DNA from: Bacteroidia bacterium
GTDB lineage: Bacteria; Bacteroidota; Bacteroidia; NS11-12g; UBA955
Length of the DNA stretch: 64,000 nucleotides
Assembly (NCBI GenBank): GCA_030158725.1
Contig: JAOASJ010000031.1
Coordinates: forward strand, 6,504 to 70,503
Direction: 5' to 3'
How positions within the stretch are numbered: the stretch's first letter is position 1; each line of letters starts with the position of its first letter. Under the pieces are notes generated by a model that was not told the DNA's origin, searched no databases, and saw only the letters and a list, made by a program, of their open reading frames with translations. This document shows, one piece after another, positions 11,679 to 27,137 of the stretch. Position numbers and translations under genes: made by a program.

Positions 11679-14156
11679 TTACAAAGAATTACTTTTTAAA
11701 TGTTTGTTATTAAAATATTTGATTAGCTCCAATACAAGCAGCATAATACTTGCGCCTAAAATTGAAATAAGAAAGTGATAAGTGCCTGGGTTTTGAAAAC
11801 TAAATAGTATCTGTAAATATGGAATATTAAGCGTTAACAAAAGCATCAAAACTGCGCTAAATATTATGAATATTAAAGATTTGTTGTTCTCTTTTAAAAC
11901 AGAAAAAGCACTTCTGGTTTTAGAGAGATTACTTAATATTAAAAAGATATTTCCAATAATTAAAGCGGAAAAACTAATTGCCCTTGTCTCTAATTCTGAA
12001 TGTCCTTCGTTAATGGTAAACAAATAAACTGTCATAACAAATGCAAGCAATAATCCACCCTGAAAAATACTGCGCAGTATCTTATTGCGACCAAAAAAAG
12101 TGTCATCTAGATTTCTAGGCTTTCTCGTCATAATATCAGCTTCTTCCTTTTCAGATTCAAATGCAATGGAACAAACAGGATCAATAATTAATTCTAAAAA
12201 TACAATATGAACAGGAAGCAATATAATGGGTAGATTTTCGAAAAAAGCAGGAATCAATGACAATCCAATTATTGGTACATGTATGGCCATAATATATGTC
12301 ATAGCTTTTTGAAGGTTGTCATAGATTTTTCGCCCACCTCTGATAGCTGAAACTATAGAAGCAAAATTATCATCTAATAACACTATGGAGGCAGATTCTC
12401 TTGCAACATCCGTACCTCTTAATCCCATGGCAATTCCTATTTGAGCGGCCTTTAATGCTGGTGCATCGTTAACGCCATCTCCAGTCATTGCGACAATATG
12501 GCCTCGCTTCTTAAAAGCATTTACTATCCTAAGCTTTTGTTCAGGAATTACTCTAGCAAATATGCTTACCGTATCAATCACCTGGCTTAATTCATCATCA
12601 TTTAATTCCTTAAGTTCTTCACCAGTCATCATTATGCCATTTTCACTAAGGCCAATTTGATTGCCAATGCTTTTTGCAGTAACTGGAAAATCGCCCGTTA
12701 TCATTACAACCTTTATACCTGCGGTTTTACATTCTTCAAGTGCTGATTTTACTTCAGGTCTAATTGGATCTTCAAATCCTAAAAAACCAAGAAAATTAAA
12801 CTTGAAATCTGTTTGCTTTTCAGGAATTTCGTTGCTTTGCGTTGTTGAATTTGCAACACCAATAACTCTAAGTCCCGCTTCCGCCATTTTTACGATTTCC
12901 TCTTTTAGATTGTCAAGCACTTGGCCCTCAATTTTGCAAAGATTCAATATCGCTTCAGGAGATCCTTTACATGATATATTGAAGGTTTCAGATTCGCCTT
13001 TTGTTACCCGAGTCATAGCAAATAACTCTTTGCTTAATGGATATTCCTTTATTAATTTTTCTTTTTCATAATCAACTTTATACAATTTTGCATGGTTCAA
13101 AATGGCTTGCTCCATTGGATCTATTGGATTAATCTGAGATGCGAGAATGGCCGTATGACAAATAATAGCAACCTCATCACTTTTGGATTCAAAATCAGCT
13201 TTAGAATAAACGATGTCTTTTTGAAATACAGAAACCAACTCCATTTTATTTTGAGTTATAGTACCTGTTTTATCACTGCATAAAACACTGGTTGAACCAA
13301 GTGTTTCAATTGCATTGGCTTGCCTTGATAATACGTTTTTCTTAGATAGTCTCCAAGCGCCTAATGCTAAGAAAACGGTTAGAACAACAGGGAATTCTTC
13401 GGGTAATATTGCCATAGCTGAAGAAAGTCCACTTAACAGTGATTCTATAAAATTCCCTCGAGTTTGATAATATGCGATGACAACAATAACACTTATTAAA
13501 CCTCCAATAATGAAAAGCGTTTTTATCAGTCTTTTCATTTCAAGTTGCAAACGTGTTGCTTCAGGTTTAATATCTTGTAATGAACGGCCTATTTTCCCAA
13601 ATTCTGTGTTGACACCTGTAGCTATAACTTTGGCGTTTGCCTTGCCTTGAATAAGCAAACTTCCACTGTAAATTGGCATACCATTTTCTTTTAAAACAGG
13701 AACAGATTCTCCAGTTAATAGCGATTCGTCAATTGTTAAATGATTAGAATCAATAACAATTGCATCGGCAGAAATTCGATCTCCTTCATTTAGAATCATG
13801 ATGTCATCAATGACAATCTCTCTTGAGGGTACTCGTTTGGTTTTGCCATCCCTTAGCAACAATGTTCTTGGAGAGGATAGTTTTTTTAGAGAATCGAGTG
13901 CTTTTTCGGTTTTTTGACGTTGATAAAAGGTAATAAAAATAATTATGAATATACTAGAAAATAAGATGATACCTTCTCTGTAATCTCCGATAATAAGGTA
14001 TAAACTGCCACATGCCAATAAGAGCATGAACATAGGCTCTTTTATAACACTTAATGCAATTTCAAATACAGATTTTGTTTCTGAATTTGGTAATTCATTG
14101 TATCCACCTTTTTTTAGCTTTTGCTGAGCTTCAACATTCGTCAATCCGATTTCCAT
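11679..14156 (-). CDS. Cation-transporting P-type ATPase (P2-type, Ca2+/Mg2+-like).
   Basis: Phosphorylation motif DKTGTITQN, the TGES motif, MITGD and the hinge TGDGVNDAPALKAAQIGIAMG. 825 aa. Confidence 0.9.
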   Translation of the reverse strand: MEIGLTNVEAQQKLKKGGYNELPNSETKSVFEIALSVIKEPMFMLLLACGSLYLIIGDYREGIILFSSIFIIIFITFYQRQKTEKALDSLKKLSSPRTLLLRDGKTKRVPSREIVIDDIMILNEGDRISADAIVIDSNHLTIDESLLTGESVPVLKENGMPIYSGSLLIQGKANAKVIATGVNTEFGKIGRSLQDIKPEATRLQLEMKRLIKTLFIIGGLISVIVVIAYYQTRGNFIESLLSGLSSAMAILPEEFPVVLTVFLALGAWRLSKKNVLSRQANAIETLGSTSVLCSDKTGTITQNKMELVSVFQKDIVYSKADFESKSDEVAIICHTAILASQINPIDPMEQAILNHAKLYKVDYEKEKLIKEYPLSKELFAMTRVTKGESETFNISCKGSPEAILNLCKIEGQVLDNLKEEIVKMAEAGLRVIGVANSTTQSNEIPEKQTDFKFNFLGFLGFEDPIRPEVKSALEECKTAGIKVVMITGDFPVTAKSIGNQIGLSENGIMMTGEELKELNDDELSQVIDTVSIFARVIPEQKLRIVNAFKKRGHIVAMTGDGVNDAPALKAAQIGIAMGLRGTDVARESASIVLLDDNFASIVSAIRGGRKIYDNLQKAMTYIMAIHVPIIGLSLIPAFFENLPIILLPVHIVFLELIIDPVCSIAFESEKEEADIMTRKPRNLDDTFFGRNKILRSIFQGGLLLAFVMTVYLFTINEGHSELETRAISFSALIIGNIFLILSNLSKTRSAFSVLKENNKSLIFIIFSAVLMLLLTLNIPYLQILFSFQNPGTYHFLISILGASIMLLVLELIKYFNNKHLKSNSL

Positions 14157-14206: not shown

Positions 14207-16363
14207 TTAATAAAAATTCACCACACCAGTCTCAACATCATACAAGCCCCCAACAATTTTTATTTTTCCTATAGATTCTAATTCTGCGATTAATGGACTT
14301 TCTTTTTTAATTCTCTCAATAGTCAATAATACGTTTAATTCAGATACCTTATTTACAAAATCTAGATTTGAACCATTTCTATTAATGGTAAAACTTGTTT
14401 CACTGTCAATAGCGGGTTGTACCTTGTTTAATAAGCTTGTTAAATTCCCTAATTTCACATGGTTGCATGCACCTATTATTGCGCCACATTTAGTATGCCC
14501 AAGAACTACAATAAGCTTAACCCCGATTTCATGAATTCCAAACTCCATACTTCCTAGTATGTCTTCATTTAAGATGTTCCCTGCAATTCGGACGCTAAAA
14601 ATATCACCTAATCCAAGGTCAAAAATATGTTCGGTTGTGGTTCTAGAATCTATGCAACTCAATACAATTGCAAAAGGGTTCTGACCAAATGACGTTGCAT
14701 TGACTTGTTGTTTAAGATATTTTTCAGCCCAATTTCCCTTTACAAATCGATCATTTCCATTTTTTAAAATCTCTAAGATGTCTTCTGGTGACATTCTTTC
14801 TTGTGTCTGTTTGTCCAAAACATCTACAAATTCAATTCGATCTTCTGGATGATAAAGAGACTTAATACCTAAGACGTTTACTTTGATGTTTTTAAGTCCA
14901 CTTACAGTATTCTTGTAGTTGTTAATAATGTCCAATACATCTGGATCTATATAGTCTGAATATGTTGCATCAATTATAACTTTCGAGTCTTCTGGGATAT
15001 TCCATAACGTTTCTTGAATGCTCGCTTTGTTTAAAAATGAAACTTGGTTTGGGAGTTCAAGACGAATTGTTTCATCCAAATGTAAAGTTTCTTTTTTTAG
15101 TACAAATGGATTGTTAAAATTGCTTTTTAATAAATAGAAAATACTAATTCCCAAGCCTATAAGGACTCCTACTAATAAATCAGTAAAAACAATTGCTAAG
15201 ATGGTACATATAAAGGGAATAAATTGATTGTATCCTTTTGAATACATGTCTTTATACAGCTCTACTTTGGTCAGTTTGTAACCTGTTACCAATAGAATTG
15301 ATGCCAATGAAGCCAATGGAATTAGATTTAAAAATGGGCCAAGCAATAGTAAACTAAGCAACAAGAAAATCCCATGAAAAATACTAGATAATTTTGTTTT
15401 ACTACCAGCGTTGATGTTTACTGAACTTCGAACAATAACAGAGGTAATTGGAATCCCACCTATAAATCCTGCAAGCATATTTCCAGCGCCTTGAGCAAGT
15501 AACTCAACATTTGGTGATGCTAGTCGTTTTTCAGGGTCAATATTTTCAACTGCTTCTAAATTTAGTAAGGTTTCAAGTGATGCGACAATGGCAATGGTAA
15601 ATGCGATAATCCAAACATCGTGATTCCCAATTTCTGAAAATTTAGGTAATACCAGTAATTGTTGATACCCTTCAAGTTTAGGAATATTTACAAGATGGGA
15701 CTCGTGAATGTATAAATCAGGTATATAAAGTTTGAAAATCTGATTGAGAAATATGCCTAAAAAGACAACAAATAATGAGGCAGGTAATAGCTGTATGTTT
15801 TTTAATCTGGTCTTGTCCCAATATACCAAAGCAATTAATGATATTATAGAGACAATTATAGCTCCCCAAGAAAAATAATTGAAAATTTGAAGCAGTTCTG
15901 AAAAAGTATTTTCTCCGTCAGATTGAGAAAATGAAAAATCATCCTCCGGGTCTTTGTCATATCCTACAGCATGTGGAATTTGTTTCAAAATAAGAATGAC
16001 GCCAATAGCAGCCAAAAGTCCTTTAATTACATTTGAAGGTATGTAATTGGCAATAAAACCTCCTTTAAAGAGACCTAAAATAATTTGAAAGGCACCAGCC
16101 AAAACAACAGCGAGCAAAAAAGTTTCGAAACTGCCTAGTTTTAATATAGAACTTAACACTATCGCAGATAATCCTGCCGCAGGTCCACTTACACTTGTAT
16201 GAGATTGACTTAAAAAACCAACCACTATCCCTCCAATTATCCCCGAAATTATCCCTGAAAGGAGAGGTGCACCACTTGCTAATGCTACACCCAAACACAG
16301 TGGTAATGCAACAAGAAACACAACCAAACCAGCGGGTAAATCACTTTTAATTTTTTTAAACAT
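14207..16363 (-). CDS. SulP family anion transporter fused to a C-terminal beta-carbonic anhydrase.
   Basis: SulP TM core, then the beta-CA motifs SCIDSR (C-x-D-x-R) and GHTKCGA (H-x-x-C). 718 aa. Confidence 0.85.
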   Translation of the reverse strand: MFKKIKSDLPAGLVVFLVALPLCLGVALASGAPLLSGIISGIIGGIVVGFLSQSHTSVSGPAAGLSAIVLSSILKLGSFETFLLAVVLAGAFQIILGLFKGGFIANYIPSNVIKGLLAAIGVILILKQIPHAVGYDKDPEDDFSFSQSDGENTFSELLQIFNYFSWGAIIVSIISLIALVYWDKTRLKNIQLLPASLFVVFLGIFLNQIFKLYIPDLYIHESHLVNIPKLEGYQQLLVLPKFSEIGNHDVWIIAFTIAIVASLETLLNLEAVENIDPEKRLASPNVELLAQGAGNMLAGFIGGIPITSVIVRSSVNINAGSKTKLSSIFHGIFLLLSLLLLGPFLNLIPLASLASILLVTGYKLTKVELYKDMYSKGYNQFIPFICTILAIVFTDLLVGVLIGLGISIFYLLKSNFNNPFVLKKETLHLDETIRLELPNQVSFLNKASIQETLWNIPEDSKVIIDATYSDYIDPDVLDIINNYKNTVSGLKNIKVNVLGIKSLYHPEDRIEFVDVLDKQTQERMSPEDILEILKNGNDRFVKGNWAEKYLKQQVNATSFGQNPFAIVLSCIDSRTTTEHIFDLGLGDIFSVRIAGNILNEDILGSMEFGIHEIGVKLIVVLGHTKCGAIIGACNHVKLGNLTSLLNKVQPAIDSETSFTINRNGSNLDFVNKVSELNVLLTIERIKKESPLIAELESIGKIKIVGGLYDVETGVVNFY

Positions 16364-16872: not shown

Positions 16873-16965
16873 TAAACAAAGTTAAGTTTTAGAATTTAAT
16901 TACGATAGATTTAAAATTTTAAATTAATTCAGTTGTTTTCGTTTAAAATTGCAACTTAAATATTT

Positions 16966-17493
16966 TTGATTCTGAATCTTGAGCAACTATATCAAACGCA
17001 TAAAAACTTGGTTTATAATCTTGCGCTAAACTATGTTCAAAATTCTGAAGATGCGGAAGAAATTACCCAAGATGTCTTTTTAACCGTGCACCAATCAATG
17101 TCCAGTTTCAAAGCCCAAGCAAATATTAAAACTTGGATTTACCGTATTACCATTAATAAATCATTGGATTTTTTAAAAGCCAAAAAACGTCAAAAAAGAT
17201 TTAGCAACTTAACTTCTTTGTTCTTTGATAATAGCTCTGAAATAAAACATCAAGAATCTGATTTTAAACATCCTGGAATTATTATGGAGGAAAAAGAAGC
17301 CTTCAAGAAATTGTTCGAAACCATTAATCAATTGCCCGATAATCAAAAGACTGTACTCATTTTATCGAAAATCGAGAATAAATCTCAGAAAGAAATAGCT
17401 GAAATTTTAAATCTCACAGTTAAAGCAGTTGAGTCTTTGTTTCAAAGAGCCAAAAAAAATATTGAAAAAAATTACCCCAACCCAAAGGATTAA
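16966..17493 (+). CDS. RNA polymerase ECF-type sigma-70 factor.
   Basis: Region 2 (LVYNLALNYVQNSEDAEEITQDVFL) and region 4 HTH (LPDNQKTVLILSKIENKSQKEIAEILNLTVKAVESL). The start is TTG as the ORF is drawn. Confidence 0.8.
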   Translation: MILNLEQLYQTHKNLVYNLALNYVQNSEDAEEITQDVFLTVHQSMSSFKAQANIKTWIYRITINKSLDFLKAKKRQKRFSNLTSLFFDNSSEIKHQESDFKHPGIIMEEKEAFKKLFETINQLPDNQKTVLILSKIENKSQKEIAEILNLTVKAVESLFQRAKKNIEKNYPNPKD

Positions 17494-17522
17494 TAAAATA
17501 ACATCGTCTAAATAATTATAAA

Positions 17523-17780
17523 ATGAAACCGTATCATCCAATAGATCGTTTAAGCCAAATTGAGAAAGTGGAAGCGCCAAACCATTTGTTTGAAAAAATA
17601 CAATCAAGAATTGGTAGTCAAAAAACAGAGAATTTTTCAATTGGTATGTCATACGCTATTGCCGCATCAATTGCTTTATTTCTTTGTCTAAACATTAGCC
17701 TTATTGTTTTCAAAGAAAATACGACAAACAAAATGAACTTATTCACCCAGTTGAATTCTAATAACGATCTATACAAATGA
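17523..17780 (+). CDS. Small single-pass membrane protein, a putative anti-sigma factor (CnrY-like in size and topology).
   Basis: 85 aa. Roughly 40 aa of cytoplasmic N-terminus, one TM (AIAASIALFLCLNISLIVF) and a short periplasmic tail. It sits 30 nt downstream of the ECF sigma and its stop overlaps the next gene's start (ATGA). Confidence 0.4.
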   Translation: MKPYHPIDRLSQIEKVEAPNHLFEKIQSRIGSQKTENFSIGMSYAIAASIALFLCLNISLIVFKENTTNKMNLFTQLNSNNDLYK

Positions 17781-18220
17781 ACAAAGTAAAATTACTAACT
17801 GTTGCAGCAATAATATTGCTTTTGTCTAATCTCATTTTAGTGGGTTTTATTTTGAAAAATAAACCTGGCAGGGGTGATGGTCCTAAAGATTATATTATTG
17901 AAAAATTAAATTTTGATGATAAACAAATTGAAGATTATAATGCGTTAATAGAAGCTCATAGATCAGAAATTAGGAAAAATGAAAAAGAAATTCATGCGCT
18001 AAAAAGTACTTTATATGCTGGTTTGAACACCATTAATCAATCGATGAAGGATTCTTTAATGAATCAAATAGCAGCAATTCAAGTTTGTATTGAAGATACC
18101 CATTGCAAACATTTTAAAGATATTCAAAGTTTATGTAAACCTGAACAAATTAAAGCGTTTGATGCTTTGTTGTTGGAAATGTCTGACCTGTTTTCTCCTA
18201 GAAAAAAGCCTAGAAGATAA
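17777..18220 (+). CDS. TM-anchored periplasmic helical protein, a putative periplasmic heavy-metal sensor (CnrX/CpxP-like fold).
   Basis: 147 aa. N-terminal anchor, then a helical domain with LTxxQ-like spacing and clustered His/Cys (EAHRSEI, EIHALK, CIEDTHCKHF). Translationally coupled to the upstream small TM protein. Confidence 0.4.
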   Translation: MNKVKLLTVAAIILLLSNLILVGFILKNKPGRGDGPKDYIIEKLNFDDKQIEDYNALIEAHRSEIRKNEKEIHALKSTLYAGLNTINQSMKDSLMNQIAAIQVCIEDTHCKHFKDIQSLCKPEQIKAFDALLLEMSDLFSPRKKPRR

Positions 18221-18221
18221 A

Positions 18222-18878
18222 ATGAATGTATTGTTTAGATTTATTTCTTTTATAAGTATTTTCATAATTAGTTATTCCTTTGCTACACCGCTTGCAGGTG
18301 TTAAAGTTGTTCTTATTCGTCCACATCAAGCTGATTCAATAAATATTGATGGTTTTAAATGTTACCTTTCTAATATTGTCATATCTGATTCAAACAAAAA
18401 GAAAGACTTAAGTCCAAGTAATTATCATTTATTGGATTTTACCAGTTCTGATACTGCAACACTGTATTTAAGTCCATTCGCTAATGCAAATTTACTTGAA
18501 TTTAATCTGGGACTTGATAGCGTAATCAATACATCTGGGGCTTTGGGAGGTCAATTAGATCCGAGCAACGGTATGTACTGGACTTGGCAAAGCGGCTACA
18601 TCAATTTTAAAATTGAAGGCACCTCTCCACATTGTTTAGCAAGAAACCACGAATTTCAATTTCACGCTGGAGGATATGCCTATCCATACAATGCCCTCAA
18701 TACAATCAATCTTGAACTTATACCCAACAAGGCATTTCATATTGAAATTGACCTAGCACTTTTTTTCAAATTGATTTCTATTCAGAATCTTAACCATGTA
18801 ATGTCGCCTGGTCCTAATGCCATAAAAATCTCCAAAGCCCTGGCATCATGTTTTAAAACAGTAATTGATGAAAAATAA
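18222..18878 (+). CDS. MbnP-like periplasmic copper-binding protein (partner of the MbnH-type peroxidase).
   Basis: Signal peptide. A 218-aa beta-rich protein with conserved Trp/His-bearing segments (GMYWTWQSGY, FQFHAGG). Its start is set at the ATG at 18222, not the track's 18090, to avoid overlapping the upstream gene. Its 3' end overlaps the start of the di-haem peroxidase gene. Confidence 0.45.
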   Translation: MNVLFRFISFISIFIISYSFATPLAGVKVVLIRPHQADSINIDGFKCYLSNIVISDSNKKKDLSPSNYHLLDFTSSDTATLYLSPFANANLLEFNLGLDSVINTSGALGGQLDPSNGMYWTWQSGYINFKIEGTSPHCLARNHEFQFHAGGYAYPYNALNTINLELIPNKAFHIEIDLALFFKLISIQNLNHVMSPGPNAIKISKALASCFKTVIDEK

Positions 18879-19875
18879 AATACTTCTTTTATTACTCTCG
18901 GTTGTTTTCTTGGCTCTCATTTCTATTGATAAACATGAGTCAAGTTTTCCAAAATATTTCCCAAAACCAGTTTATCAATTTGAACAGAATCAAAGCAATG
19001 ATTTGAAAATTGAATTGGGTCGTACTCTATTTTATGACCCCATACTTTCTTTAGATAATACAATTTCATGTGCTTCTTGTCACAATCCTTATAATGCTTT
19101 TGCGCACGTTGACCACAATCTAAGCCATGGTATAAATGACAAAATTGGTAAACGCAATGCGCCTGTATTGTTTAACTTGGCTTGGCATAAATCCTTTATG
19201 TGGGATGGGGCCATCAACCATCTGGATGTTCAAGCCCTTGCTCCAATTTCTCATCCTGATGAAATGGGGGAGACCATGTCAAATGTCTTGCTAAAGTTGA
19301 ATAGAAATCAAATCTACAAACAGCTTTTTTATCAAGCCTACGGTGACTCCCAAATAAACACTGAAAGAACACTTAAATCTATCTCTCAATTTTTATTAAG
19401 TTTAATCAGCTCAAATTCTAAATACGACAGCATGTTGCTTGGTAAAATCCAATTTAATACACAAGAACAAAATGGTTACCGCTTGTTTAAACTGCATTGT
19501 AATTTTTGCCATAAAGAGCCATTGTTCTCTGACTTTTCATTTAAAAATAACGGACTTTCTTTGGATACGAGTTTGAATGACTTTGGACGCTACAGTATTA
19601 GCTTGTTGCCAAATGATTCATTCAAATTCAAAGTGCCTACTTTGCGAAATGTTGAATTTTCTTATCCGTATATGCACGATGGGCGATTTAAAACATTAGC
19701 CCAAGTAATGAACCATTACAATTCAATAGATTTAAAAAATAAAAAAATCTCTACTGAACTACAAAGAAATTTAAATTTAAGCAGCAATGAGAAGGTTGAT
19801 ATTATTGCATTTTTAAGAACTTTAACTGACAAAAAGTTTCTTTTTAACCCCCAACACGCTTACCCTAAAAAATAA
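18865..19875 (+). CDS. Di-haem cytochrome c peroxidase family protein (MbnH/MauG-like).
   Basis: Two CxxCH haem motifs (CASCHNP and CNFCHKEP). CCP family hallmarks RNAPVLFN, WDGA/HDGR, PTLRN. 336 aa with a signal peptide. Confidence 0.8.
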   Translation: MMKNKILLLLLSVVFLALISIDKHESSFPKYFPKPVYQFEQNQSNDLKIELGRTLFYDPILSLDNTISCASCHNPYNAFAHVDHNLSHGINDKIGKRNAPVLFNLAWHKSFMWDGAINHLDVQALAPISHPDEMGETMSNVLLKLNRNQIYKQLFYQAYGDSQINTERTLKSISQFLLSLISSNSKYDSMLLGKIQFNTQEQNGYRLFKLHCNFCHKEPLFSDFSFKNNGLSLDTSLNDFGRYSISLLPNDSFKFKVPTLRNVEFSYPYMHDGRFKTLAQVMNHYNSIDLKNKKISTELQRNLNLSSNEKVDIIAFLRTLTDKKFLFNPQHAYPKK

Positions 19876-19925
19876 TAAATTTCTTGCAAAGGATTCAAGA
19901 AATTTAATCGTCTAACCAATAAAAC

Positions 19926-20786
19926 ATGAGAAAAATATATTTAAGTATAGCCATTGTTACTGTATCTCTATGCAATATAAATGGTCAAACAGTTCCCAAT
20001 TCTAGCTTCGAAACTTGGTCGCAAAATGGACCTTTTGAAACCCCAAACAATTGGAATGTTAGTCCTGCTGCTTCAAAATCAACCGATGCGCACACTGGCA
20101 CTTATTCCTTACAACTTAAAACCGGGATTTTTACCAACCCTCAAACCCAAGCAATTGATACAATACCTGGAATGGCAACAACTGGTCAACAAGGTATGGG
20201 ACCAGGCAATCAAGGAACAAACGGTTACTCTTTTGGGGCTAGACCGGATAGTCTGGTTTTTTGGTACAAATACCAAGCACAAAATAATGATTCGTTTGTT
20301 GTACGCCTTAATTTGACCAAATGGAATTCAGGGGTTAAGGACATGATTTCGGACCTGGTTTTTATAGGTGGAGCGACTATGAAATATACCAGAGTCGCAA
20401 TTGCATTACCTTATTTTTTAAATTCACAACCCGATACTGCAACCATACAGATAATTAGCAGTCTTAGTCCTAGAGAAAATTTAATTTTGGGTTCTACATT
20501 ATTGATTGACGATATTGGTTTTATTAGCAACAGCAGTGCGGTAGAACAAAACACAATTAACAATAATGTTCAGGTTTCAATTTACCCAAATCCGTTTAAC
20601 AATTCATTCACTATTGCCAATTTTAACAGTGACAATATCAAACTAATAGACATCTTTGGTGCTTTAGTTTTAGAACAAAACACGCGCAACATTGAAACTA
20701 TTGATATTTCAACATCTTCATTAGCTCCAGGTATCTACTTTATAGTATTGAATGATGGTGTTTACCACAAAATAATAAAAGAATAA
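19926..20786 (+). CDS. Secreted protein of unknown function with a T9SS type-A C-terminal sorting domain.
   Basis: Signal peptide. C-terminal roughly 80 aa match the Por_Secre_tail pattern (VSIYPNPFNNSFTI...APGIYFIVLNDG). The stop is directly adjacent to the multicopper oxidase start. Confidence 0.6.
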   Translation: MRKIYLSIAIVTVSLCNINGQTVPNSSFETWSQNGPFETPNNWNVSPAASKSTDAHTGTYSLQLKTGIFTNPQTQAIDTIPGMATTGQQGMGPGNQGTNGYSFGARPDSLVFWYKYQAQNNDSFVVRLNLTKWNSGVKDMISDLVFIGGATMKYTRVAIALPYFLNSQPDTATIQIISSLSPRENLILGSTLLIDDIGFISNSSAVEQNTINNNVQVSIYPNPFNNSFTIANFNSDNIKLIDIFGALVLEQNTRNIETIDISTSSLAPGIYFIVLNDGVYHKIIKE

Positions 20787-22517
20787 ATGAAAATAAAATC
20801 ACTTTTCACCTTAATAGCATTGATTGCATGGAAGTTGTCAAATGCCCAATACAACCAATTATGGATTCCTGATACTTTGACTGGGACAAATTTTAACTTG
20901 ACCATCAAAGATACTTTTGCCCAAATATGTAATACAGGGAATCAAACAATAACAGGTGGGATTAATGGGAAGTTTTGGGGACCTACTTTGTTCTTTAAAA
21001 AAGGAGAGGTGGTGCATTTAAATGTGAAGAATAATTTAAATGATTCAACAACCATACATTGGCATGGCATGCATTTACCTGCGGTGATGGATGGCGGTCC
21101 TCATCAAGTTATTCCTCCAGGAGCTCTTTGGCAACCATATTGGAAAGTTGCAAATAATGCGTCAACGTATTGGTACCACCCACATTTACACGAAATGACC
21201 ATGGAGCATATAAGCAAGGGTATTGGTGGATTGATTATCGTAAGAGATAGCATTGAATCGTCTTTGAGTTTACCAAGGACTTATGGACTAGATGATATTC
21301 CAATGGTTTTGACCGACAGAGATATTAATTCTTCCAATCAATTTGATTTGGTGCCTTATGGCGACAGTTGTTTGGTAAACATGACTCTTAGAGCACAATA
21401 TACAGTGCCAACTCAGGTCGTACGCTTTCGTTTGTTAAATGCCGCTATTGAGCGTTCATTTAACATTGGTTTTAGCGACAATAGAACTTTTTATGTTATT
21501 GGTTCTGATGGAGGCTTGTTAAATGCTCCAGTTCCTCTAACCCGTTACTTATTGCATGCAGGTGAAAGAATTGAAATATTGGTAGACTTCAAAGGTCAAT
21601 CAACATCAATCGACATTAAAGCATTTAATTCAACCCTCGGAAATGCAATTCCGGGTGGCGAGAATTTCCCAAATGGTCCTTTTGCAAATGCTTTGGGAAA
21701 GAAAGACTTTGTCATGCTGCATTTGAATTTTAAATCGGCGACCAACAATGCAATTACTAGTATTCCTACTGTTTTAACCAATAATATACTTTTGAAATCA
21801 GCAGATGCTCAAATAACAAGAGCTCTAACAATGACAGATAGTGCGGGTGTTCCAGGAACTTTGGGCCCAAATACCTTTATAATTAACCACAGATTATTTA
21901 AACTAAACTATATTGATTACCAAGTGCCATTAAACAATACAGAAATTTGGCAGATCACAAATTCCACTGCTTTTGGGCACCCATTCCATATCCATGACGT
22001 TGAATTTAATATTATCAGTGTAAATGGAGCCGCACCATCAGCAGCTCAAGCTGGCTGGAAAGATGTGGTTTTTGTGCCTGGCGCAAGTGGAGGAGGACCA
22101 GGTGGTGGAGGTACGCCTTACGTAATTAAATTTATTGCAAAATTTGATGATTATGCAGACGCCCTTCATCCATTTATGTACCACTGTCACATTTCGTTGC
22201 ATGAAGATGAAGGAATGATGGGACAGTTTGTAGTAACTGATCCATCAAATAAAATTAACACCAATGAGAATCTTACATCATTTTCATTGTTTCCAAATCC
22301 AGCAAACCAAACACTTTATTTCAAGTTTAATAACAGCAATCAAAATGTTTATTATGTGAGAATAGTTGATGCCTTAGGTAGAACAATTATGATGTTGCCT
22401 GCCCCAGAATTAAATAAGGGCATTGATATTTCACAATTAATTCCAGGTGTTTATTCAGTTATACTTACAGATGGAGATTCAAAAAAAGTAAGCATTCAAA
22501 ATTTCGTTAAGGAGTAA
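20787..22517 (+). CDS. Multicopper oxidase (laccase/CueO-like) with a T9SS type-A C-terminal domain.
   Basis: Copper-binding motifs HWHGMH, HPHLH, HPFHIHD and HCHISLHEDEGMMGQF. C-terminal FSLFPNPANQTLYF...PGVYSVILTDG. 576 aa. Confidence 0.85.
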   Translation: MKIKSLFTLIALIAWKLSNAQYNQLWIPDTLTGTNFNLTIKDTFAQICNTGNQTITGGINGKFWGPTLFFKKGEVVHLNVKNNLNDSTTIHWHGMHLPAVMDGGPHQVIPPGALWQPYWKVANNASTYWYHPHLHEMTMEHISKGIGGLIIVRDSIESSLSLPRTYGLDDIPMVLTDRDINSSNQFDLVPYGDSCLVNMTLRAQYTVPTQVVRFRLLNAAIERSFNIGFSDNRTFYVIGSDGGLLNAPVPLTRYLLHAGERIEILVDFKGQSTSIDIKAFNSTLGNAIPGGENFPNGPFANALGKKDFVMLHLNFKSATNNAITSIPTVLTNNILLKSADAQITRALTMTDSAGVPGTLGPNTFIINHRLFKLNYIDYQVPLNNTEIWQITNSTAFGHPFHIHDVEFNIISVNGAAPSAAQAGWKDVVFVPGASGGGPGGGGTPYVIKFIAKFDDYADALHPFMYHCHISLHEDEGMMGQFVVTDPSNKINTNENLTSFSLFPNPANQTLYFKFNNSNQNVYYVRIVDALGRTIMMLPAPELNKGIDISQLIPGVYSVILTDGDSKKVSIQNFVKE

Positions 22518-22576
22518 TAACATATCTCATCCCAAAATAAAATCATTTTCTTTCAAACCCATATTTAAAATAATTA

Positions 22577-23926
22577 ATGAAAATCTCTAGCCTTTTAATC
22601 GCACTTGTTTTTACAACACTTGCAAATGCACAAACCAATCCGATAATTACCTCATGGTTGCAGAATACCACTGGAATTCTTGGTAGACATTATGTAAATG
22701 GAAATTCTACTCCAATTAACGATGCCGATACCGCCAATGTTATGTCGGTTTCATATTCGAGTAATTGGGTTTACATCAGAACCAACGGTGTGCCTTCTTA
22801 TATTACAGGTCCATTTTTAGATGGCAATCCTTCAATCACCACTGCTCAAAAAGCCATTTTTAAATTGAGTTTAAACCCTGCAAAAAATACAGGCACATTA
22901 ACGAATACTACAGGTGGAAATATTGGATTGTTTATAAATGGTGTTGCTTTGTTTGACTACCGAGACGGTGTTTCTTGGAGCAATGCAAACAACGCTTTAA
23001 AAGGTGGTCCTTTGGGAGGAATGGGCGATAATGTTTGGAACCGTGATGCGGTTGTGGCTGAAAGAAAGGGTTTCGATTGCGCGAAAGGCCATCCTGCAAT
23101 GGGCAATTACCACCACCATCAAAATCCTAGTGCTTTTAATCTTGATCAGAATGTGGTTTCAACCATTTGTAACTTATACAATGCTGATGGATTATATGTT
23201 ATAGATTCAACAAAACATTCGCCACTTATTGGTTTTTCTTACGATGGATTTCCAATCTACGGCGCTTATGCATATAAAAATGCGGATGGAACAGGTGGAA
23301 TTGTTCGCATGAAATCTGCTTACAAATACAGAAATATCACAACAAGAACTACTTATTCTAACGGAAGTAATGTAACTGCAGGTCCTGTTGTTTCAAGCAC
23401 ATATCCACTTGGTTACTTTAGAGAAGATTATGAATTTGTGGCAGGAACGGGTGATGATATACTTGATGTTCACAATGGCCGTTTTTGCGTTACCCCTGAA
23501 TACCCGAATGGTATATATTGTTATTTTGCAACTGTTGACGCTAATTGGAATTCTGCATATCCCTATGCTGTTGGTCCAACTTTCTATGGGGTTAAAAATG
23601 CTGTAAAAGTTACTGCGATTAGTGAGCCAGTCACAATTTATAAGTCCAATAATACCGGTGTTGAATCTTTCATTCAAGAGATGAATATTAGCATTTACCC
23701 GAACCCTACGAGCGATTTATTGGCAGTTCAATGCAATGAAATCAACCGCGAGAACATCAATGTTGAATTGTACGATTTTACTGGCAAATTGGTTCAGTCT
23801 TGTGTTTTATTACAAGGCAGTACCATCGCGTATTTCGATACCCAAACATTGTATGCGGGTCAATATATAGTGAAAATTAATACCACTTCAAAGGTATATA
23901 CCCGTAACATAAGCATTGTTAAATAA
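22577..23926 (+). CDS. YHYH family protein with a T9SS type-A C-terminal domain.
   Basis: Signature GHPAMGNYHHHQNP and a YDGFPIYG segment. C-terminal ISIYPNPTSDLLAV...AGQYIVKINT sorting domain. 449 aa. Confidence 0.7.
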   Translation: MKISSLLIALVFTTLANAQTNPIITSWLQNTTGILGRHYVNGNSTPINDADTANVMSVSYSSNWVYIRTNGVPSYITGPFLDGNPSITTAQKAIFKLSLNPAKNTGTLTNTTGGNIGLFINGVALFDYRDGVSWSNANNALKGGPLGGMGDNVWNRDAVVAERKGFDCAKGHPAMGNYHHHQNPSAFNLDQNVVSTICNLYNADGLYVIDSTKHSPLIGFSYDGFPIYGAYAYKNADGTGGIVRMKSAYKYRNITTRTTYSNGSNVTAGPVVSSTYPLGYFREDYEFVAGTGDDILDVHNGRFCVTPEYPNGIYCYFATVDANWNSAYPYAVGPTFYGVKNAVKVTAISEPVTIYKSNNTGVESFIQEMNISIYPNPTSDLLAVQCNEINRENINVELYDFTGKLVQSCVLLQGSTIAYFDTQTLYAGQYIVKINTTSKVYTRNISIVK

Positions 23927-23932
23927 TGTGAT

Positions 23933-24532
23933 ATGTTAAAATTATCATCACGTTTTTCATTATTGCTTATAACCACTTTAGTCTTCGGTTTTATCAATGA
24001 GACGCCTCAATCCATCAATGATTTTACACTCAAAAACATTGATGGAAAAATGGTTTCACTAAGCAATTATAAAGAGGCTAGGGGTTTTATTATTGTATTT
24101 ACTTGCAACCATTGTCCATTCGCAAAACTATATCCTGAGCGCTTTAACCAATTGAATTTAAAGTACAAGCCATTGGGTGTCCCATTGCTCGCAATAAGTT
24201 CAACGGATACAATACTATATATCGAAGACACTTATTCAAAAATGGTAAAAAAAGCAAAAAAGGAAAAGTTTAATTTCCCCTACCTATTTGATGGAGAGCA
24301 AACAGTAGCTAAGAATTTTTCTGCACAAAAAACACCTCATGCTTATGTGGTTTGGAAAGAAAATAATAAATGGGTTGTTAAATACGATGGGGCAATAGAT
24401 GATAATGGCAACAATCCTGAAAAGGTCAGCAAACACTTTGTTGCTGATGCGGTAGATTCATTGCTGTTGAATAAGTCAGTGGCAATCCGACAAACTAAAT
24501 CAATTGGTTGTCAAATTCTATTTAGAAAATAG
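23933..24532 (+). CDS. Thioredoxin-fold (redoxin/AhpC-TSA-like) thiol-disulfide oxidoreductase.
   Basis: Signal/anchor sequence. CxxC motif in FIIVFTCNHCPFAKLY. 199 aa. It is the last gene of the same-strand run. Confidence 0.6.
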   Translation: MLKLSSRFSLLLITTLVFGFINETPQSINDFTLKNIDGKMVSLSNYKEARGFIIVFTCNHCPFAKLYPERFNQLNLKYKPLGVPLLAISSTDTILYIEDTYSKMVKKAKKEKFNFPYLFDGEQTVAKNFSAQKTPHAYVVWKENNKWVVKYDGAIDDNGNNPEKVSKHFVADAVDSLLLNKSVAIRQTKSIGCQILFRK

Positions 24533-24701: not shown

Positions 24702-27137
24702 TTAAGTCTTGTTTTGATGCTGAACCAATGGTAAAGTGATAATAAATTCAGTGCCTTCATTAGGTTTGCTCACTGCATTAATTTCTCCACCCATGCTTTC
24801 TAATTGTGCTTTAACCATATACAATCCAATCCCATTGCCTTCAGAATTATTGTTAAACCGCTTATATAGACCAAACAACTGAGAACCATATTTGTCCATA
24901 TCAATTCCAATTCCGTTGTCTTTAAAATGAAGTATAACTTGTTCGCTTTTAATCTCAGACCAAATGTCCAATCTTGCAACTTGACCTGCTTTTGCATATT
25001 TTATACTATTGCTAATCAAGTTGTAAAAAACACTGTTCAAATAAGTTCTAATCGACCCAATATTTCCACATTTTGAAAAATCATCACTGATTTGAATTTT
25101 ACTGCTCTCTATTTGTTTACTTAAAATGTTTTTAACATCGCCTAACAAGTCTTTGAATTCAACAAACTCATTCAACTCAGATACATCTTTTTTGACTTTT
25201 AATATTTCATTTAAGTCAACTATAACCGTTTCTAATCGCTCAGTTGATATATCAATTTTTTCTAAAATTTCTTCTTTTTCAATTGGGTCATTTGACTCTT
25301 TTAACAAGGAATTTAAAGCAACAATATTAGCGACTGGTGCCCTTAAATTATGGGAAACTATAAAGGCAAATTGCTCTAAATCTTTGTTCCTTCTTAACAA
25401 AACGGAGTTGGTATTTAACAAGGTGTTTTCCATTTCTTTTCGTTTGCTAATATTTTGAGCTGCAATACAATAACCAATTATTTCATTTTTATTTAATACT
25501 GGAATAGCCGTAATTTCAAAGTAGTCTAATTTTGTTTCATTTAAATAGGTCGTTTCATAAGCAAATGATTTCTTTTCATTTGTGATTTTTTCAAATACCC
25601 AATTGAAATTTACTTTTTTGTCAGGATGTAATAATTCAAGGAAACTTAGGCCTGTCTGAATTTGAAATCCTGTTAAAATATTGTATTCCTTTAACATGAT
25701 TTTATTGTAAGACTGGATTATGAAATTCACATCCATCAAAAAATAGCCTATTTCTGTATTCTCAAAAATAGAATTCATATTGGCCTCAGATTTTGTTAAA
25801 AGTTTATAAGCATCTTCTTTCTTAAAATACGTTTCCAACATTTCAGCTATAGTATTAAGCAAGAATATTTCTTCTTCTAAAAACAAATAATTCTGAGAGG
25901 ATTCATTTTGCGGTGGATAAACCACTTCTATGAATGAATCAGCATATTCCTTACAATTAATTTCGGACCTTATTTTATTTAAACTTGCATTAAATCCAAT
26001 TGATTGATACAAGTCTGAACCACATTTAATTCGAGCTTCACAATCAACATCAAACTGGAATGCATACGGAATTAAGTTGACTATACTATTTAATAAAGTA
26101 TCCTTATCGTGGTTATCGTTTAAAAGCAATTTGTTTACTTGATGTAAAACATCCAGCTCTTTAATACGCATGCTCAATAATTTGCTGTTTTGTTCTTTCT
26201 TAATCTTGATGCGTATGTTTTTAACCGCCGTAGACAAATTCTTCGCAATGGTCTCTAATACTTTTACCTCTTGTTCATCAAATGAATCGACACTGTCTGA
26301 ATATATGTTGATATTTCCTGTTACATGTTTATGGTAATTTAAAGCAATCGATACACAACCTTTTAATCCGTATTCATCTGCTTTGTCCTGCCAAAACGCG
26401 AAGTTTTCTATTAGTTTAAAATTATTTGCTATTGTAGTAAGTCCTGTATTGAGAACATTAGCTGTAGGACCGTTGCCTTGAATTTTGTCTGCTAAATTTA
26501 TTTTAATGTCTTTGGTATAGCCAGTTTTTCCATATTCTGCAGCAATTTTTAAATTTTGATCTTTTGCATCAAATTCTGGTTTTACACCTATCCAAACCAA
26601 TTTATAATTTCCAAATTCCACCAAATATTTACAGACTTCTTGTGTCAAATTCAATTCATCATGAATGTTGTAAATTAATTCACTTACTTGGTTAATTAAC
26701 TTCAATTCAGATATTCCTCGAGTTAACTTATGGTTTATCTCAACCTTCTCTGTTATATCGGTTAAAATTCCATTCCAAATTATATCTCCATTTTCTTGTT
26801 TCTTTGGGATAGAATTGAAATGTAAATATTGAGACTCTCCATTGCCGTTTTTTCCTCTAACTTCAATATCGAATATGCTTAAGTTTTGATAGGATTCGTA
26901 TTCGGCTTTGCGAAAACGTTCAATATCATCAGGGTCAATTAATCCTCTTAGAATTTCTTGGTCATTGTATAATTCGTTCAAACTACATCCCGAATATTCC
27001 TCTATGTTTTTGCTTAAATAGGTAAACTTCCCAATTCCAGAAACAAACATAGTATATTGGTAAATTATAACTCCTGGGATATTGCTGCTAAGCGCTTCTA
27101 GGAAATTACTGTTTAAATCGGTTTTTTCTTCATTCAT
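24702..27137 (-). CDS. Cytoplasmic multi-PAS/GAF sensor histidine kinase.
   Basis: HisKA H-box (FAFIVSHNLRAPVANI). HATPase_c N/G boxes (YNLISNSIKYA, DNGIGID, GNGIGLYMVK). 811 aa. No N-terminal TM segment and no adjacent response regulator. Confidence 0.85.
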   Translation of the reverse strand: MNEEKTDLNSNFLEALSSNIPGVIIYQYTMFVSGIGKFTYLSKNIEEYSGCSLNELYNDQEILRGLIDPDDIERFRKAEYESYQNLSIFDIEVRGKNGNGESQYLHFNSIPKKQENGDIIWNGILTDITEKVEINHKLTRGISELKLINQVSELIYNIHDELNLTQEVCKYLVEFGNYKLVWIGVKPEFDAKDQNLKIAAEYGKTGYTKDIKINLADKIQGNGPTANVLNTGLTTIANNFKLIENFAFWQDKADEYGLKGCVSIALNYHKHVTGNINIYSDSVDSFDEQEVKVLETIAKNLSTAVKNIRIKIKKEQNSKLLSMRIKELDVLHQVNKLLLNDNHDKDTLLNSIVNLIPYAFQFDVDCEARIKCGSDLYQSIGFNASLNKIRSEINCKEYADSFIEVVYPPQNESSQNYLFLEEEIFLLNTIAEMLETYFKKEDAYKLLTKSEANMNSIFENTEIGYFLMDVNFIIQSYNKIMLKEYNILTGFQIQTGLSFLELLHPDKKVNFNWVFEKITNEKKSFAYETTYLNETKLDYFEITAIPVLNKNEIIGYCIAAQNISKRKEMENTLLNTNSVLLRRNKDLEQFAFIVSHNLRAPVANIVALNSLLKESNDPIEKEEILEKIDISTERLETVIVDLNEILKVKKDVSELNEFVEFKDLLGDVKNILSKQIESSKIQISDDFSKCGNIGSIRTYLNSVFYNLISNSIKYAKAGQVARLDIWSEIKSEQVILHFKDNGIGIDMDKYGSQLFGLYKRFNNNSEGNGIGLYMVKAQLESMGGEINAVSKPNEGTEFIITLPLVQHQNKT

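Follow-up and report, generated by a model that had tools for sequence, protein, structure and literature searches.

What do an MbnP-like and an MbnH-like gene do side by side in a member of the Bacteroidia, where neither methanobactin (Mbn) genes nor a TonB-dependent transporter (TBDT) could be found around them? The question is raised by positions 18222-19875 of a 64,000-nucleotide stretch of Bacteroidia bacterium DNA (assembly GCA_030158725.1, contig JAOASJ010000031.1), called the window in the following, for which an earlier interpretation made from the letters of the DNA (the sequence-only reading) had proposed such a pair. We find that the first gene encodes an MbnP at the family level, a member of a short, divergent and Cys-less subfamily that scores below the equivalog cut-off, that the discriminating residues of its di-haem partner favour a place in the MauG/MbnH branch, and that the most conserved partner of the two is a secreted protein with a YHYH domain. 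On balance we lean towards the interpretation that the pair is a short Bacteroidota-type MbnP/MbnH system, forming the core of a module that is induced by an envelope signal and that buffers or routes periplasmic copper.

The MbnP-like protein and its di-haem partner

The two genes, and the residues of the first that are discussed below, are as follows.

18222..18878, plus strand: MbnP-like periplasmic protein, 218 amino acids (aa), assigned by Pfam MbnP, an AlphaFold2 (AF2) model searched with Foldseek, hhalign and a motif alignment
18865..19875, plus strand: MbnH-like di-haem enzyme of the bacterial cytochrome c peroxidase (bCcP)/MauG superfamily, 336 aa when counted from TTG, assigned by CCP_MauG, TIGR04039 and an alignment with 6E1C
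Candidate copper-site residues of the MbnP-like protein: W120/W122 (the WxW motif), H148 and M194 (also M118)

The open reading frame (ORF) at 18222-18878 begins with an ATG one base past the stop codon of the upstream gene, and its product starts with the hydrophobic, signal-like segment MNVLFRFISFISIFIISYSFA. A longer, TTG-started form is possible from position 18090; most of the close homologues have the 218-aa length. Scoring 124.4 bits (E 6.6e-36) over profile positions 25-188 of 189, the protein clears the 27-bit cut-off of the Pfam MbnP family (PF20243). When its AF2 model, which has a predicted local distance difference test score (pLDDT) of 85.7, was compared with the PDB by Foldseek, the six chains of 7L6G were the only significant matches (E 6.5e-9 to 1.5e-8, probability 1.00), aligning with template modelling scores (query) of 0.59-0.64 and an identity of 14-16%. 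The sequence of 7L6G was obtained via the MbnP of a Methylocystis iwaonis plasmid and a small alignment of canonical MbnPs was built from there; hhalign between the Bacteroidota subfamily and the canonical MbnPs gave a probability of 97.5% and an E value of 8e-12. Neither a phmmer search of the PDB with the 218-aa protein nor a search with a 30-sequence subfamily profile found 7L6G. Since the direct sequence search of the PDB failed, it is Pfam, the fold search and the profile-profile alignment that establish the homology. An exhaustive HMMER search returned 1,495 cluster representatives of the subfamily at E ≤ 1e-30 and 4,709 at E ≤ 0.001, and among the matches listed there were only close relatives and no bridge to the canonical MbnPs.

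In the characterised MbnP, MbnH makes Kyn174 from a Trp of the WxW motif, and the copper ligands are His, Met, Kyn and water (PMC11951088). The sequence-only reading would be refuted were the 218-aa protein from an unrelated family and devoid of such residues, and this is not the case. The alignment with characterised MbnP shows both Trp of WxW, the His common to the whole family and the Met to be retained, as is evident from the hhalign columns of the window protein and 7L6G (GMYWTWQSGY/GMAWNWQAGR, FQFHAGG/WMVHVGS and HVMS/GCMS). W120-T-W122 is placed on W-N-W of 7L6G, H148 on the sole His that is invariant across all MbnP groups, and M194 on the Met of GCMS, and W120, W122, H148 and M194 are all invariant in 30 members of the subfamily. 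In a wider alignment combining canonical, Deinococcus, Chondrinema and Bacteroidota members, the motifs W.W..G and H.G are invariant in every group, and the WxW Trp pair and the His of H.G are the only invariant ligand-type side chains. The Met of (C/V)MS is found in all groups aligned except Deinococcus, where the column holds His, a swap that is typical of metal ligands. Judged from these columns, either W120 or W122 may correspond to Kyn174.

The di-haem ORF can start from TTG 18865 or from ATG 18868, of which the ATG is the likely one. The 14-nt overlap with the 218-aa gene, whose stop codon ends at 18878, that the sequence-only reading had pointed out holds for the TTG and becomes 11 nt from the ATG. 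The two CxxCH motifs and the peroxidase-type hallmarks that it had seen were recovered as CASCH (residues 69-73), CNFCH (residues 212-216) and a Pfam CCP_MauG match with E 2.4e-52; other marked residues are W113 and Y285. The best NCBIfam model was that of MbnH, TIGR04039, with 205.1 bits over positions 5-335 of 336, and the MauG model followed with 173 bits, also below its cut-off. MbnH 6E1C aligns with the protein from end to end, N- and C-terminal extensions included, and the segments (F/L)PKY(F/I)P.P at the N-terminus and AFL.TLTD..F...P at the C-terminus are common to both. In plain sequence comparison with the PDB, MauG scores about 80 bits.

Two further sites separate the window protein from the peroxidases. 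It has PYMHDG as in MbnH, where the peroxidases have PYFHDG, and the column of Y285 (in NHY) is Tyr in MbnH 6E1C (IYS) and MauG (HYV) and Met in the peroxidases 3O5C and 1IQC (NTM, ETM). The Tyr at this column is a haem ligand in MauG. It is invariant in all 75 aligned (non-gap) Bacteroidota partner sequences, which means that the His/Met electron-transfer haem of the canonical bCcPs is not to be expected here, and Tyr would by analogy serve as the haem ligand throughout the MbnH-like branch. Taken together with the end-to-end alignment and the best NCBIfam match, the Tyr column supports the earlier naming of this protein as MbnH-like.

A conserved module with a secreted YHYH protein

For the comparison of gene neighbourhoods, relatives were sought in one genome per species, which gave 464 confirmed relatives, and 80 loci were kept as the comparison set. 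All of the 80 are from Bacteroidota or allied metagenome-assembled genomes (MAGs), comprising Chitinophagales, Saprospiraceae, Sphingobacteriales, a few Flavobacteriaceae and Kapaibacteria/Ignavibacteria; at 90% identity, the nearest relative comes from freshwater MAGs. An MbnH-like gene lies directly after the MbnP-like gene in 80/80 loci, so the pairing is not a matter of chance.

A further recurrent element is a gene for a YHYH-domain protein carrying a sorting domain of the type IX secretion system (T9SS). Counting only the 71 loci with at least 1.5 kb of downstream sequence, this gene is present in 63, usually immediately 3' of the MbnH gene; close YHYH orthologues occur in 58 of those 63 loci, 46 of them immediately after MbnH. 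As a reverse check, three YHYH orthologues were picked independently of the pair, by the length of their contigs alone, and all three adjoin MbnP-MbnH. The YHYH protein is 72-78% identical across very diverse Bacteroidota, compared with 37-47% for MbnP and 50-63% for MbnH at the same loci. It is clear from these numbers that the T9SS-exported YHYH protein is the most conserved partner of the pair and not an incidental neighbour. Its invariant residues include the His clusters H172, H179-181 and H214, the Cys residues C168, C198 and C304, and also Trp residues. Modelling by AF2 failed (pLDDT 36.9) with an alignment in which the 30 homologues were 72-89% identical, and in the PDB neither sequence nor profile searches matched anything but the T9SS tail. 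In a remark in the phage-genomics literature the YHYH domain was called 'enigmatic' and given a predicted metal site (PMC7824862).

In the window the pair and the YHYH gene are part of a cluster whose other members, together with the YHYH gene itself, are listed here.

16966..17493, plus strand: sigma-70 factor of the extracytoplasmic function (ECF) type, 175 aa, first gene of the cluster (Pfam Sigma70_r2 and r4_2; TIGR02937, 102 bits against a cut-off of 42.9)
17523..17780, plus strand: putative anti-sigma factor, 85 aa, one predicted transmembrane segment (position; weak DUF3379 match only)
17777..18220, plus strand: membrane-anchored helical protein of the LTXXQ / Spy-CpxP-CnrX type, 147 aa (weak Pfam LTXXQ match, E 0.0038, sub-gathering score)
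19926..20786, plus strand: T9SS cargo without family, 286 aa (only Por_Secre_tail matches)
20787..22517, plus strand: three-domain multicopper oxidase with T9SS sorting domain, 576 aa (Cu-oxidase_3, Cu-oxidase, Cu-oxidase_2, Por_Secre_tail)
22577..23926, plus strand: YHYH-domain protein with T9SS sorting domain, 449 aa (Pfam YHYH, E 5.9e-58; Por_Secre_tail)
23933..24532, plus strand: secreted thioredoxin-fold protein with a CNHC motif, last gene of the cluster (AhpC-TSA, E 2e-16; Redoxin, E 1e-10)

These nine co-directional genes span positions 16966-24532, follow one another with 0 to 59 nt between them or with short overlaps (4 nt, 11-14 nt), and are flanked by a divergent gene upstream and a convergent histidine-kinase gene downstream (24702-27137, opposite strand). 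Such spacing suggests that they are co-transcribed. As for the genes after the pair, which the sequence-only reading had described as T9SS cargo, a C-terminal T9SS sorting domain was found in three of the four that follow the di-haem gene.

Position and topology suggest an anti-sigma function for the 85-aa protein. The LTXXQ-like protein was considered as a CnrX-like metal sensor and rejected, no His or Cys being conserved in it; its homologue in loci L090 and L091 gives a faint to weak Metal_resist match. The 286-aa cargo begins with a VPNSSFETW-type segment and has no informative PDB relative; with a homologue in only one of the 80 loci (L003), it is an accessory to the module and not a conserved part of it. 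The multicopper oxidase has CueO as its best NCBIfam model (349 bits against a cut-off of 525), and its translation displays the copper motifs HxH, HxH, HxxHxH and HCHxxxH. The thioredoxin-fold protein also has a weak ResA-like NCBIfam match.

How much of this cluster is shared was judged gene by gene. An ECF sigma homologue within 3 kb upstream of MbnP was found in 34 of the 67 loci having enough upstream sequence, and the LTXXQ-like gene in 37 of the 80. BLAST recovered homologues in the anti-sigma slot in 18/80 loci, and unannotated genes of 86-91 aa occupy the same slot in L087, L088 and L090. The multicopper oxidase and the thioredoxin-fold gene occur together in 10/80 loci, and the oxidase also in L094. 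Pfam-labelled gene calls agree, across independent contigs, on an order of six genes: sigma factor, a gene of ~90 aa, a gene of ~150 aa, MbnP, CCP_MauG and YHYH-T9SS. Compared with this six-gene form, the lineage of the window and its nearest relatives L001 and L003 have the cargo without family and/or the oxidase inserted between MbnH and YHYH. Collectively, these data define ECF sigma factor, anti-sigma factor, LTXXQ-like protein, MbnP, MbnH and T9SS YHYH protein as a conserved Bacteroidota module, apparently unreported: in the searchable literature on YHYH, PF14240, MbnPH and MbnH we found no account of it, and the primary MbnP/MbnH papers may already cover the group.

Other arrangements of the pair were also seen. 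The module is rearranged in L094, where a KatG-like peroxidase and an MsrA/B fusion are followed by MbnP, MbnH, sigma factor, two small genes, YHYH-T9SS, multicopper oxidase-T9SS and sulfatase-T9SS; this locus connects the pair not only with copper but also with oxidative-stress genes. On a Deinococcus radiodurans plasmid (L096), MbnP, CCP, a hypothetical gene, CopC and CopD stand in a row, and a Chondrinema plasmid (L082) carries two CCP/MbnP pairs back to back, one of them with reversed gene order.

No TBDT was found in the 64-kb window, where all ORFs of at least 576 aa were assigned to other families and tblastn with a TBDT query gave none below E 0.6. Likewise, tblastn of the Methylocystis proteins MbnB, MbnC, MbnM and MbnF and of the TBDT against the window returned nothing better than E 0.046; mbnA is too short for a search of this kind. 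In these two respects, the missing MbnT-like neighbour and the setting outside a methanobactin context, the sequence-only reading described the window correctly. It had also taken this context to be unusual, and there we part from it. Among 53 flanking ORFs of at least 600 aa in related loci, two matched TonB_dep_Rec_b-barrel, three OMP_b-brl_3 and seven CarboxypepD_reg; large same-strand ORFs upstream of MbnP were considered as hidden TBDTs and rejected, being CotH, GH3, MetRS, OLD-family ATPase and similar. A TBDT neighbour is the exception in the Bacteroidota subfamily, and since the TBDT-less context is the norm, the flagged oddity is not unusual; the faithful partner is the YHYH cargo. 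Nor is a pair outside the Mbn context new, since Pfam and NCBI already name Bacteroidota members 'MbnP family protein', MbnP/MbnH pairs were described in 2013 as 'conserved far beyond Mbn producers' (PMC3621798), and MbnPH-like genes were reported in 2022 in other copper operons, alongside AhpC_TSA genes (PMC9426467).

Database naming is less reliable for the partner gene. Several RefSeq/PLSDB plasmid records (e.g. L085:4887-6038) name a di-haem MbnH-like gene of ~383 aa 'methanobactin export MATE transporter MbnM', and a Trichormus example with this label aligns end to end with MbnH, so that the label on di-haem genes looks like a systematic naming error.

Some observations concern the surroundings of the module. 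Just upstream of the sigma start (window 16930-16965) lies an element, TTTAAAATTGCA(A/C)C, which is kept only in the closest relatives L001-L004, loci further away showing no sign of it; the element may belong to a promoter or 5' untranslated region. No common ECF-type motif was seen in 36 inspected regions upstream of the sigma gene. A P-type ATPase further upstream (11679-14156) was considered as a copper pump and rejected, having the Cation_ATPase_N and C domains of the P2 type. Between it and the cluster, at 14207-16363 on the minus strand, a SulP-family anion transporter is fused to a beta-carbonic anhydrase domain, and a trio of MFS, VIT1 and SulP-carbonic anhydrase genes is also upstream of MbnP in L092, a locus without the sigma module. 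Downstream, 27961-30825 on the minus strand encodes a 954-aa fusion of glycoside hydrolase family 3 and a beta-lactamase-fold domain that is also found downstream in L001 and L002, and 35562-40676 on the plus strand encodes a 1704-aa PKD-repeat protein with a CHU_C (type B) T9SS signal, by which the window encodes both type A and type B T9SS cargo.

Copper, peroxide or a secreted client

How could such a pair operate? Both proteins are periplasmic, and the MbnH-like enzyme would carry one haem ligated by His and Tyr, like that of MauG and MbnH. Reaction with H2O2 could bring the enzyme to a high-valent bis-Fe(IV) form, in which it would convert either W120 or W122, the two Trp of the WxW motif in its MbnP-like partner, into kynurenine. 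This would complete a copper site together with H148 and M194. The MbnP-like protein so matured would bind periplasmic copper. The module as a whole would be induced by an envelope signal, possibly supplying copper to cuproproteins before their export by the T9SS. The chemistry behind this scheme is that of MbnP/MbnH (PMC11951088, PMC11892367). As T9SS cargo folds in the periplasm before export, one may speculate that the pair supplies or conditions secreted metalloproteins. In functional terms, the module probably handles envelope copper or oxidative stress, and a role in copper is suggested by the MbnP/MbnH homology, by the multicopper oxidase in the operon and in about one in eight related loci, and by the Deinococcus row with CopC and CopD. 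MbnP/MbnH pairs are also said, in a 2019 JBC abstract, to be found typically near copper-homeostasis genes.

A number of observations weigh against this reading. On the MbnP side, the equivalog model TIGR04052 (MbnP_like_WxW, 'metallo-mystery pair four-Cys motif protein') gives 24.5 bits against a cut-off of 140, with a match to the WxW core only; the protein is ~70 residues shorter than canonical MbnP (218 against about 290-350 aa); it has no counterpart of the four invariant Cys of the canonical set; and a second His (the NH motif), likewise invariant there, is replaced by Thr. Confidence in the AF2 model is lowest at the WxW loop (pLDDT 59-69), and the His and Met of 7L6G are putative ligands, assigned by conservation. 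On the side of the enzyme, TIGR04039 stays at 205.1 bits against a cut-off of 362.85, and in plain sequence searches of the PDB the peroxidases 3O5C (142 bits) and 1IQC (135 bits) score above MbnH 6E1C (127 bits). As for the surroundings, a multicopper oxidase is near the pair in only about one locus in eight; the AhpC/TSA gene here and the KatG-like and Msr genes in L094 suggest peroxide stress no less than copper; the LTXXQ-like protein and its relatives, 38 homologues in all, have no conserved His or Cys; and a scan for promoters and terminators, which does not model Bacteroidota promoters, gave a number of sites not above that in shuffled sequence. The activities ascribed to the MbnP-like subfamily are, moreover, read here from sequences and models.

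Given its conservation, the YHYH protein could itself be the real client of the enzyme, or an additional one. The MbnH-like enzyme would then modify a YHYH residue before export, or MbnP would pass copper to the YHYH protein, and the secreted product would be a metal-binding protein of the surface or the extracellular space. We regard this as unlikely. It would account for the adjacency in 63 of 71 loci, for the three of three orthologues beside the pair and for an identity (72-78%) well above the 37-47% of MbnP, and the invariant His clusters (H172, H179-181, H214) and Trp residues would suit it, as would the metal site predicted for the domain (PMC7824862). There is also a parallel in the kynurenine copper proteins of methanotrophs, MopE and CorA, both of which have a di-haem peroxidase as partner and are either associated with the cell surface or secreted (PMC3621798). 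However, the published prediction for YHYH is a Zn hydrolase and not a copper protein (PMC7824862), the failed AF2 model (pLDDT 37) and the lack of a PDB relative give the idea no structural footing, YHYH is absent beside the pair in 8 of the 71 informative loci, and MbnP keeps a complete candidate site and so is not a mere adaptor.

A peroxide-defence role of the di-haem protein has somewhat less to recommend it, and we hold it to be distinctly improbable. The protein would be mainly an H2O2-scavenging periplasmic peroxidase, co-induced with the AhpC/TSA-like protein by an ECF sigma factor responding to envelope or oxidative stress, and the MbnP-like protein would be its electron donor or a sacrificial redox partner instead of a copper protein. 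Canonical peroxidases are indeed the best PDB sequence matches of the di-haem protein, an AhpC/TSA protein is encoded in the operon, and the pair adjoins KatG-like and MsrA/B genes in L094. MbnH can reportedly detoxify H2O2 when MbnP is absent, according to a 2023 Biochemistry abstract. Against this, the Met haem ligand of the peroxidases is replaced by an invariant Tyr as in MauG/MbnH, the distal His of the bCcP loop is not aligned in the di-haem protein, multicopper oxidase and CopC/CopD genes recur near MbnPH pairs, and the WxW, His and Met set of MbnP, needless for a simple electron donor, is strictly kept.

That the pair takes over copper imported through the outer membrane, as in methanotroph and Bordetella-type operons, with the transporter encoded elsewhere in the genome, appears very improbable: canonical MbnPH often adjoins MbnT-like TBDTs (PMC3621798), TBDT operons that are repressed by copper can contain MbnPH-like genes (PMC9426467), and a TBDT-like gene is near the pair in L087 and L090 with CarboxypepD_reg in 7/53 large ORFs, but TBDT adjacency is not conserved in the subfamily, the 64-kb window yielded no TBDT, and the CueO-like oxidase encoded alongside the pair would be more at home in copper detoxification.

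Returning to the preferred reading of a copper-buffering or copper-routing core, a bolder extension of it is that MbnP, MbnH and the T9SS YHYH protein, often under the ECF module, make up an undescribed system in which a kynurenine-copper protein, or MbnH, matures or metallates a secreted protein before its export by the T9SS. We put this forward tentatively, as a speculation that is more doubtful than probable. If it were true, the YHYH domain would receive its first function, as that of a secreted copper- or redox-cofactor protein, and MbnPH would receive a physiological role. Even for methanotrophs, the literature still describes what MbnP/MbnH do physiologically as unknown or speculative (PMC9601215, PMC11951088). 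Whatever the outcome, the subfamily, which is very large and common in Bacteroidota, presents a minimal core in a small operon with recognisable partners (multicopper oxidase, thioredoxin-fold protein, ECF regulator), and hence a less complicated genetic setting in which to ask what purpose the kynurenine-copper site serves. The uncharacterised YHYH domain is here linked to copper or redox biology for the first time, and the MbnP-MbnH-YHYH(T9SS) module is a testable lead on the function of both MbnPH and the domain. In terms of annotation the locus is ordinary and is correctly captured by Pfam and NCBI naming, and it should not be taken as evidence of methanobactin-like chemistry in Bacteroidota.

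Comparison with known systems

The closest characterised system is the MbnP/MbnH pair of Methylosinus trichosporium OB3b (7L6G, 6E1C), with which the window pair shares the two-gene order, the overlapping or abutting genes and the periplasmic location of both products. The MbnP proteins have the same fold, and their WxW motif, the His of H.G and the Met of (C/V)MS align; the MbnH proteins share the two CxxCH motifs, PYMHDG, the Tyr in the axial column and the N- and C-terminal extensions. The differences are that MbnP identity is 14-16% in the structural alignment, that the window protein is shorter and has neither the four Cys nor the NH His, and that the window pair is below both TIGRFAM cut-offs. 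In the window, furthermore, there is no match to mbnB/mbnC or MbnT, and the genes alongside encode an ECF sigma module and T9SS cargo (YHYH, multicopper oxidase).

In gammaproteobacterial methanotrophs, MopE/MCA2590 and CorA/CorB likewise combine a copper protein with a Trp-derived kynurenine and a neighbouring di-haem cytochrome c peroxidase (PMC3621798, PMC11951088). MopE and CorA are surface-associated or secreted and in this resemble the secreted YHYH and multicopper oxidase cargo of the window operon, whereas the MbnP-like protein of the window has no T9SS signal and the secreted proteins of the window belong to other families. The folds of MopE and CorA differ from that of MbnP (PMC11951088), and both bind copper via two His plus Kyn.

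MauG with its substrate, the precursor of methylamine dehydrogenase, offers the same principle of a di-haem enzyme with a His/Tyr haem performing long-range oxidation of Trp in a partner protein, and the Tyr column is common to both. It differs in that the window enzyme scores 173 bits with the MauG model against 205 bits with that of MbnH, that no mau genes or amicyanin gene are nearby, and that the partner is MbnP-like and not methylamine dehydrogenase. The canonical bCcPs (Shewanella 3O5C, Nitrosomonas 1IQC) share the two-domain di-haem architecture and the inter-haem Trp and have the top plain sequence scores, but the window protein has Tyr for Met, PYMHDG for PYFHDG, MbnH-type extra segments and an obligate MbnP-like pairing.

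For the regulatory genes we presume a likeness to CnrH/CnrY/CnrX of Cupriavidus metallidurans, which would likewise comprise an ECF sigma factor, a short single-pass anti-sigma factor (85 aa against about 95 aa for CnrY) and an anchored helical periplasmic protein of ~148 aa. The gene order differs, the LTXXQ match is sub-threshold and none of the metal-ligand His, Glu and Met residues of CnrX is conserved in the 38 homologues, and the resemblance is accordingly offered as an analogy only. Set beside these systems, what is different here is a short, Cys-less, sub-equivalog MbnP subfamily with a conserved link to a T9SS-exported YHYH protein and an ECF module.

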